From: Candidatus Eremiobacteria bacterium
GTDB lineage: Bacteria; Vulcanimicrobiota; Vulcanimicrobiia; Vulcanimicrobiales; Vulcanimicrobiaceae
Reading direction: 5' to 3'
DNA: 64,000 bases
Assembly (NCBI GenBank): GCA_963737065.1
Contig: CAVTRC010000001.1
Coordinates: 704,001-768,000 of the forward strand
The translations under genes and the position numbers were made by a program. Positions 22,220 through 23,327 of the stretch are shown piece by piece; the first letter of the stretch is position 1; each line of letters opens with the position of its first letter. The notes beneath the pieces are model-generated. The model searched no databases. It was not told where the DNA came from and saw only the letters and a list, made by a program, of their open reading frames with translations.

Positions 22220-22761
22220 GTCACCCCGACCAACCTACAGGTCCGCTTCCCGAACTCATCTGGTTGAAAAAGATTATCGTCGAACGCGCGCTTACGCGCG
22301 GAGAATACATGCTCTCCGGCGGCGCGCGCAGCGACTACTACATCGATAAATTCCGGCTCTTCTCCGATCCGCACGTCCTCCGCCGCATCGCACGCATGTT
22401 CGTCCCCGTCCTGACGGAGACCAATCCGGACCTCATCGCGGGCACGGAGCTTGGCGGCGTCGTCATCGCAACGGCCGTTTCGCAGTTATCGGGAATTCCG
22501 ATGATCGCAGTGCGCAAATCGCCGAAAGCCTACGGCGCGTTCGCAAACGAATACGTCGAAGGCCCGTTCGATGCCGGGCAACACGTGCTGCTGCTCGAAG
22601 ATGTCGTCACATCGGGACGCGAGTTGCTCGCAGCGAAGGCACGGCTGGAAGAACTCGGGCTGCGCGTCACCGCATGCGCGGTCGTCAGCCGCGGCCTGGC
22701 TCCAATCCGCGCCTTGATTCAATTCTCACTGCCCCGCGGCCAAGCAAAGACGGAAAACTAA
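22207..22761 (+). CDS. pyrE: Orotate phosphoribosyltransferase-like PRTase
   Basis: LSGGARSDYYID, VRK and the PRPP motif VLLLEDVVTSG. Confidence 0.7.
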   Translation: MEHLGHPDQPTGPLPELIWLKKIIVERALTRGEYMLSGGARSDYYIDKFRLFSDPHVLRRIARMFVPVLTETNPDLIAGTELGGVVIATAVSQLSGIPMIAVRKSPKAYGAFANEYVEGPFDAGQHVLLLEDVVTSGRELLAAKARLEELGLRVTACAVVSRGLAPIRALIQFSLPRGQAKTEN

Positions 22762-22774
22762 TAACTGCAGGCCA

Positions 22775-23233
22775 TTACGGCAGCGAGGCGAGCACCTCTT
22801 GAGCGTGTCCGTCGACTTTCACCTTCGGCCACACTTTCACGATCTTGCCTTTCGGATCGATCAAGAACGTCGAACGCGCCACTCCTTTCGTGATCTTTCC
22901 GTACATATTTTTCTCTACGATCACGCCCATTGCGTCGCAGAGCTTTGAATCCGTATCAGCAAGCAACGTAAACGGGAAGCCGAACTTCTTTTTGAACTTC
23001 TGATGCGATTCGACCGAATCGCGGCTAACGCCGACGATCGTCGCCTTCTTCTTTTGGAATTCGGCGTACAGATCGGCAAACTGCGTGCCTTCGTTGGTTC
23101 AACCTGGTGTATCGTCTTTCGGATAGAACCACATCACCACGTTGCCCTTACCGAGAAGATCGTGAGTCGACACACGAATTCCCCGGTCGTCGAGCAACGT
23201 GAGGTCCGGCAACGTATCACCTTCGGTTAACAT
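22775..23233 (-). CDS. bcp: Peroxiredoxin BCP/PrxQ with in-frame TGA at the peroxidatic position (probable selenocysteine)
   Basis: One frame reads MLTEGD...WFYPKDDTPG-TGA(23099-23101)-TNEGTQFADLY...GVSRDSVESHQKFKKKFGFPFTLLAD...RSTFLIDPKGKIVKVWPKVKVDGHAQEVL*. 152 aa with a GGAGG RBS. Confidence 0.88.
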
Positions 23234-23327
23234 CCGCATCTCCTCCCCTCCCGCGATGACGAGCGAAGCGATTCGTACGCAAGGTACTCTCCGTCGACGA
23301 CGATAATGAGCGTCTCGGTCGCCATAG

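Follow-up and report, generated by a model that had tools for sequence, protein, structure and literature searches.

The stretch of DNA analysed here (64,000 nt, referred to as the window) carries on its minus strand a peroxiredoxin gene of the BCP/PrxQ type with an in-frame TGA at the position of its catalytic residue. The features on which the analysis bears are:

23240..23246, minus strand: Shine-Dalgarno-like GGAGGAG 5' of the bcp start, recognised from the sequence
22775..23233, minus strand: bcp/prxQ, predicted selenoprotein gene, 152 codons plus TAA; Sec45 as predicted catalytic residue, alpha2/alpha3 resolving Cys absent
23099..23101, minus strand: TGA read in frame as codon 45, the peroxidatic site of P38-x3-T42-x2-U45; GGT is the codon before it
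23023..23089, minus strand: spacer +10..+76, predicted long irregular hairpin with mixed support, which contains and outcompetes a hairpin proposed earlier (23089-23063)
23005..23022, minus strand: predicted distal SECIS at +77..+94 after the UGA, 7 Watson-Crick pairs, GGUC tetraloop at 23015-23012
22937..22939, minus strand: Cys99, sole Cys codon of bcp, aligned to a Cys of solved BCP structures and lying outside alpha2/alpha3

The open reading frame running from 23233 to 22775 contains a single in-frame TGA, at 23101-23099, within PKDDTPG-TGA-TNEGT. An earlier note on this DNA had described a TGA at the PxxxTxxC position of an otherwise intact 152-codon BCP, which is what is found, on the minus strand that the note had left unstated; its expectation that gene callers would split the gene also holds, as the standard ORF list gives an upstream ORF of 117 aa and a downstream ORF of 63 aa. 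No promoter-like or terminator-like site was found. The read-through product matches Pfam AhpC-TSA over residues 5-133 (E=1.6e-34, above the cut-off), and a PDB search with it returned a bacterioferritin comigratory protein as top match (E=2.8e-41). Its top matches in NCBIfam were PrxQ and PRK09437, with scores below the equivalog cut-offs (NF053650, 157 against 260 bits; NF006960, 122 against 140 bits), and the protein is therefore assigned to the BCP/PrxQ subfamily and not to those equivalogs. Neither the exact protein nor its two fragments occur in a 15-billion collection, and records that are 76-88% identical are labelled as Vulcanimicrobiota or one of its genera.

An alignment of 28 proteins shows no variation at P38, T42, position 45 or R120, the last being the catalytic Arg, which aligns with the RSTF of solved BCPs. 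Three of these structures (PDB 5IPH, 5IIZ and 3GKK), which we take to be Xanthomonas campestris PrxQ, match the product at E of about 1e-41 and align with it gap-free over residues 32-151; they share with it the absence of the alpha2 resolving Cys and the presence of a later Cys, and differ in having Cys where Sec is predicted here and an alpha3 Cys (SHDNFC) where the present protein has Lys. The lack of the usual resolving Cys five residues after the active site, which had been remarked on earlier, is confirmed, C99 being the sole Cys of the protein. Since the alpha2 resolving Cys is also absent from all 46 Cys-codon homologues examined, its absence is a trait of the lineage and no sign of Sec; according to PMC4749874, the resolving Cys is missing from about a third of PrxQ proteins. 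By general peroxiredoxin chemistry, Sec45 would attack the peroxide with the assistance of T42 and R120, and, the alpha2/alpha3 resolving Cys being absent, resolution of the selenenic acid would depend on an external thiol.

Bacterial peroxiredoxins with Sec have been catalogued under COG1225 Bcp / PF00578 with the motif TxxU and the representative WP_011365628.1 (PMC9312934 and PMC13188914, in their tables), in agreement with the statement of the earlier note that such proteins occur in bacteria, and the protein predicted in the window is thus a further member of a known family. It shares with these proteins the AhpC/TSA fold family, the PxxxTxxU motif, the UGA at the peroxidatic site and a genome with SelABCD, and is unlike them in its host, a member of Vulcanimicrobiota, and in a predicted SECIS away from the usual place. 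No paper on selenocysteine in Eremiobacterota / Vulcanimicrobiota was found in the literature searched.

In two relatives (G001 and G003) bcp is flanked by an ion-channel/TrkA-like gene on its upstream side and, directly downstream, by an MBL-fold hydrolase-like gene, both named from their translations. Both flanking genes are missing at the corresponding places of the window (22761-22771 and 23244-23273), where bcp is retained. The window's genome (G000) also has a Cys-type BCP paralogue (L056, C1:276432-276875, minus strand), which reads PKDDTWGC and is 57% identical to the TGA-type bcp; among the seven genomes of the genus, this type was found in G000 and G003.

The genome of the window encodes selA (C1:1175647-1176951), selB (C1:1173782-1175620) and selD (C1:1787345-1788262), all above curated cut-offs, together with a tRNA-Sec with UCA anticodon (C1:1161356-1161445, 71 bits), so that all four genes which the earlier note had named as a check are present; the C-terminal SRKY segment of SelB is intact. 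Of 41 genomes searched, 38 yielded selA, 39 selD and 34 tRNA-Sec. Two genomes (G008 and G010), in which selA, selC and selD were not found, both have Cys at the bcp site. The TGA is kept in all seven genomes of the genus and in 18 of the best 30 relative loci, the remaining 12 having TGC/TGT, and the aligned peroxidatic column comprises 45 TGA and 46 TGY rows; the comparison of orthologues that had been suggested earlier therefore shows the TGA to be retained throughout the class, other orthologues having TGC/TGT. Class-wide, a bcp homologue is present in 334 of 385 genomes and the TGA-site pattern was matched in 99 of the 385, a pattern that is not confined to bcp, since it also picks up AhpC/TSA paralogues of other kinds and, at least once, a site that fits by chance. 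The tallies on the genus TGA, the sel genes, the best 30 loci, the 385 genomes and the Cys rows include unpublished genomes. Downstream of the TGA, dN/dS amounts to 0.043-0.112 at a dS of 0.69-1.44, with an identical TAA stop, in nine of nine pairs, and the TGA survives a dS of about 1 in ten of ten genes. The machinery, the conservation of the TGA and the purifying selection behind it strongly support the recoding proposed earlier, and the UGA at codon 45 is very likely decoded as Sec by the predicted SelA, SelB, SelD and tRNA-Sec of this very genome.

The Gly codon in front of the UGA (23102-23104, minus strand) is GGT in all ten close genes, in 25 of 35 other TGA orthologues, in 20 of 24 SelD genes and in one of 12 Cys sister genes, and GGT makes up 17% of the Gly codons of G000. 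GGT before a Sec UGA is a possible 5' context signal.

Two readings without Sec were weighed. That the TGA is a nonsense mutation or a sequencing error, in a gene redundant with the Cys paralogue, could appeal to nearby assembly frameshifts, to the 57% identity of that paralogue and to the listed DNA run, which contains relatives alone (at most 95% identity) and none of this strain. It is refuted by the conservation of the TGA in independent assemblies and keeps practically no probability, given the TGA in seven of seven genus genomes and a motif of the TGA type in 99 of the 385 genomes of the class, a dN/dS of at most 0.112 and the retention of bcp where both flanking genes of the relatives are missing. 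That suppression, whether leaky or dedicated, inserts Cys or Trp at the UGA is very improbable: ARAGORN lists one tRNA with UCA anticodon in G000, which scores as tRNA-Sec, Trp at position 45 would remove the catalytic atom, and with Cys a drift back to TGY would be expected, against the TGA kept at a dS of about 1 in ten of ten genes. The points in its favour are the lack of a canonical proximal SECIS and the UGA-as-Cys tRNAs with SECIS that some bacteria have according to PMC13582414. As for the other lesions of the window, which the earlier note had described as indels, about nine frame changes were seen by comparison with G001 or G003 (at about 12250, 14770, 28765, 30905, 31570, 48370, 48700, 52510 and 54030), which is partly in line with that description; these may be either assembly indels or decayed genes.

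In the literature consulted, the bacterial SECIS is placed immediately behind the UGA, and the bSECISearch model, as given in PMC13188914, is defined by a loop of 3-9 nt with G in its first two positions, an upper stem of 4-16 bp, an energy of at most -7.5 kcal/mol and 16-37 nt from the UGA to the apical loop. The earlier note had proposed that an imperfect hairpin directly downstream of the UGA (23089-23063) is the SECIS. This was not borne out, as the hairpin lacks support from shuffles, covariation and context: its energy of -7.6 kcal/mol is no better than that of shuffles (z -0.10 and -0.58), there is no G at loop positions 1-2, no compensatory change was seen in ten close orthologues, 500 of 500 shuffles reaching its paired share, and its pair probability is 0.0 in a 100-nt context. 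Its register pairs 84% of cells, compared to 24-39% when slid. An Rfam search returned a chance snoRNA match only (E 3.4).

A contiguous hairpin fitting the model at 16-37 nt from the UGA was found in none of the ten genes of the window's genus and its sister genus, and in 32 of 35 other TGA orthologues; these counts, as well as the first tally of the distal hairpin, also include unpublished genomes. In the majority of orthologues a perfect hairpin of 7 bp, with an AGUUYC loop and a spacing of 16, lies at +10..+29, and the full 7-pair form of this proximal hairpin is present in none of 46 Cys rows. In G000 itself, the formate dehydrogenase (FDH), SelD and peroxiredoxin-like genes have model-fitting hairpins at 16-37 nt. 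At bcp, a CAGTT motif at +16..+20 persists in nine of the ten close orthologues.

The best SECIS candidate lies farther downstream, outside the approximately 60 nt after the UGA that the earlier note had wanted scanned. This distal hairpin, located in the codons R-D-S-V-E-S-H, falls within the consensus in its 4-nt loop and 7-bp stem, in the G of the loop (GGUC in 18 of 18 aligned rows) and in its energy (-10.0 kcal/mol for a 31-nt fragment, -8.5 for the bare hairpin). Its loop (+84..+87) is 83 nt from the UGA, outside the 16-37 nt rule, so that by rule it is not a member of the consensus bSECIS, and we infer a bSECIS-like way of working. It has a z of -2.69 and a pair probability of 0.96 in a 200-nt context, and codons +26..+31, which form the 7-bp GGUC stem, are identical in all ten close genes. 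Synonymous identity among the ten closest orthologues is 0.79-0.87 at codons +10..+33, compared to 0.49-0.66 outside codons -2..+33, while in the proximal-type genes it peaks (0.83) at codons +4..+9.

A census was made of 73 TGA rows from published genomes, consisting of 64 of the 72 TGA places of the window's family and nine orthologue rows from two other families (seven unpublished places, one chance match, 11 rows of divergent paralogues and G036 were left out). The proximal hairpin alone is present in 46 rows and the distal one alone in 18, nine rows have 5-6 of the 7 proximal pairs without the distal hairpin, and none has both. All 14 TGA rows with at most four proximal pairs carry the distal hairpin, which is found in two of the 46 Cys rows, the latter being a hand-picked subset. 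The 18 distal rows, which are kin from seven genera, were defined by having the hairpin, and their 100% pairing is therefore by construction. Among the genomes of these 18, selA was present in all those checked (seven, one of them cut short, plus five), and selB in three more and in G191.

Within the stem, 12 of the 18 genomes have U-A at the pair +81/+90, the other six have C-G, and G-U does not occur; the covariation score of the stem, in which one of seven pairs varies, was reached by none of 500 shuffles. With metagenome rows included, the same pair is U-A in 17 and C-G in 13 of 30 unique rows; these rows were found by a pattern that fixes the loop and matched 44 loci, most of the remaining loci belonging to different lineages that have proximal hairpins of their own. 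The DSVES peptide does not force the hairpin, as one of 14 other genes with this peptide has an all-Watson-Crick GGUC hairpin and 4 of the 23,358 GGTC sites of G000 have such a stem. DSVES with favoured codons does make a partial hairpin easily, 8 of the 46 Cys rows reaching 7/7 pairs when G-U pairs and any loop are allowed. GGTC/AGTT loops are also those of the FDH SECIS elements of this class. A covariance model run against six sources retrieved only the bcp gene and its paralogue at E < 1e-3, and a de novo selenoproteome scan of G000, which was noisy, yielded four TGA genes that are credible and no further example of the distal layout. Judged from these sequence comparisons, the hairpin at +77..+94 is probably the SECIS, to which SelB would bind.

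This candidate resembles the consensus bacterial SECIS (bSECISearch, PMC13188914) in its 4-nt loop beginning with G, its 7-bp stem, its energy below -7.5 kcal/mol and its place in the coding region, and the minimal SECIS of E. coli fdhF (PMC10945757) in its GGUC loop. It is unlike them in the 83 nt between UGA and loop instead of 16-37, and in an upper stem without the bulged U. No natural distal bacterial SECIS was found in the literature searched, most subscription journals being outside its coverage. Su, Li and Gladyshev reportedly engineered in 2005 a distant SECIS in E. coli that was base-paired behind the UGA and was inefficient. In the RiboU system, as described in PMC10945757, a SECIS fused to 16S rRNA can drive Sec insertion on SECIS-free mRNA. 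The present case is like both in that a SECIS away from the UGA would be workable if it is near the ribosome; those are constructs, however, whereas the hairpin in bcp is a predicted natural element, selected in seven genera and situated in the coding region.

As to the bridging of the distance, +10..+76 closes into a single long hairpin in the consensus fold of the ten close genes, with the GGUC hairpin immediately behind it. In the genus of the window and the sister genus, the nine free bases and the 7-bp stem would then amount to 16 nt of effective spacing, as in the proximal SECIS of the relatives, and the folded spacer mRNA would bring the distal SECIS next to the ribosome. The 20-pair structure of the spacer is paired in 93.5% of cells in the ten closest genes, from which it was derived; in the other eight distal genomes its register pairs 66% of cells, compared to 64% in Cys genes. 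Over all 18 the pairing is 81%, against 34-56% when slid, and the covariation was reached by one of 500 shuffles, while RNAalifold across the 18 distal rows gave no consensus spacer structure. In 22 of 30 distal genes the stability of the spacer exceeds that of at least 90% of synonymous recodings, compared to 6 of 15 proximal and 4 of 15 Cys genes; the distance between UGA and hairpin along the fold, on the other hand, is below that of the recodings in only 6 of 30. The basal pair +10:+76 has a probability of 0.8 in a 100-nt context and 0.0 in a 200-nt context, and the inner spacer stem one of 0.94 in a 200-nt context. Taken by itself, the looping-out of +10..+76 as the bridge is modestly favoured by these folding models; it is likely for the window's genus and unproven in general.

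The reading preferred for the whole, to which we assign a probability of about 0.75, is that the UGA is decoded as Sec, with SelB on the GGUC hairpin 83 nt downstream and the intervening mRNA folded. The gene might instead be a real selenoprotein gene in which Sec is inserted by way of a weak or unusual proximal element, either the hairpin of the earlier note or the AGUU at +17, the distal hairpin being kept for some other reason, for instance pausing of the ribosome, stability of the mRNA or a habit of codon use. The persistence of CAGTT in nine of ten close orthologues, the 84% pairing in register compared to 24-39% when slid, and a review that admits some bacterial SECIS elements outside the model are consistent with such an element. 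It is unlikely, all the same, in view of the absence of a model-fitting hairpin at 16-37 nt in ten of ten genes, of the lack of covariation and of the competing fold in context, and the distal hairpin occurs in exactly the TGA genes without a proximal one and in none of the 46 with it. Moreover, the other three predicted selenoprotein genes of G000 carry ordinary hairpins (-10.5 to -13.8 kcal/mol), for which reason its SelB looks conventional.

A nearer alternative accepts the distal hairpin as SECIS and dispenses with a defined spacer helix, a raised local concentration of SelB on a paused ribosome and compaction of the mRNA being enough. The differing spacer registers among the distal lineages, the context-dependence of the basal helix and the 16S rRNA fusion that works on SECIS-free mRNA (PMC10945757) agree with it, and it is a real though doubtful possibility; the strong synonymous conservation through the entire spacer and the 93.5% pairing of one 20-pair structure, both in the ten closest genes, speak against it, as does the finding that most distal genes fold the spacer alone into one long hairpin.

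The chances are a little better than even that bcp represents a natural second bacterial SECIS architecture, in which one clade of Vulcanimicrobiota has moved the SelB hairpin about 67 nt downstream, the proximal one has been dropped and the mRNA is folded out. If so, the distance rule for SECIS elements would be spatial, not linear, and a group of selenoproteins in bacteria would escape gene finders that rely on the SECIS. Prediction tools build in a position immediately behind the UGA. What the locus offers is an unusual, well-controlled candidate for a distal SECIS in a genuine predicted selenoprotein of a known family, and the layout would amount to a bacterial recoding signal that naturally acts over a long distance. 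An exception of this kind, natural and under selection, for which a single gene family supplies the controls (46 proximal, 18 distal and 46 Cys genes), makes it directly testable whether SelB depends on linear or spatial proximity, a question of relevance to the production of recombinant selenoproteins, in which the choice of residues behind Sec is limited by the SECIS.

Regarding the history of the distal form, an rpoB tree of 52 genomes (one gene, quick search; G023, which is short, G087 and G222 left out) placed 14 of the 15 distal-type genomes that it contains in one 30-row clade (SH-aLRT 99), with G212 outside. Within this clade the distal-type genomes are spread over five distinct places, interspersed with 16 genomes of the Cys type. 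Of the distal genes, 17 can be accommodated in a single clade, mixed with Cys forms, and with the Sec rows of the rpoB tree alone two changes suffice; the BCP gene trees are poorly resolved. Cys genes pairing 7/7 at the distal site make up 5 of 15 in the clade, compared to 1 of 5 outside. This is read most simply as a single shift to the distal element with several later Sec-to-Cys changes, and the distal form of the seven genera probably had one or two origins. Three genomes (G210, G212 and G261) have two homologues each, the second copy of G210 being of the proximal type though its genus is in the clade, so that transfer or paralogy blurs this history. A regain of Sec from Cys with a newly built proximal hairpin was dropped as the less likely explanation, the distal hairpin being common to the five places in one rpoB clade. 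A change in SelB was likewise set aside: its C-terminal segment, compared by eye, is without clade-specific difference in 29 of 30 loci, the remaining one being cut short. The pattern suggests repeated Sec-to-Cys changes in a peroxiredoxin. It bears on a type of change of which a 2006 survey counts none for peroxiredoxins (against five Cys-to-Sec events), and which a 2026 review calls rare in bacteria outside FdhA and SelD.

Further predicted selenoprotein genes were observed in G000. A formate dehydrogenase alpha gene (L052, C1:1330055, plus strand) has an in-frame TGA (NQARI-U-HSS) and a canonical 8-bp SECIS, and the TGA is present in all 31 matches to this gene, which come from 26 of the 35 genomes searched. 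A peroxiredoxin-like ORF (C1:425886, plus strand) reads LRHVG-U-TFF, has no second Cys and carries an 8-bp AGUU hairpin at a spacing of 25; by these sequence features it is likely a further selenoprotein. SelD itself (L010, C1:1788232, minus strand) is a predicted selenoprotein with its own TGA, behind which lie two tandem hairpins, the second of them (spacing 33, loop GUC) fitting the SECIS model.

Elsewhere, a divergent TGA peroxiredoxin with DFSQRSADF (family f3; L423-L427, L431-L436) has a GGUC(U) hairpin at a spacing of 28-29, a third position that brings the SECIS placements in the peroxiredoxin family of one class to at least three. An AhpC/TSA paralogue bearing TGA in a PKAFT active site was found at G026:C2:8112, G031:C2:11872 and ten similar places (families f2/f3). 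Finally, TGA-type BCPs were also identified in Terriglobia and Deltaproteobacteria records and in metagenome contigs (L114, L115, L353-L396), some of them with the alpha2 Cys and with varied proximal hairpins.
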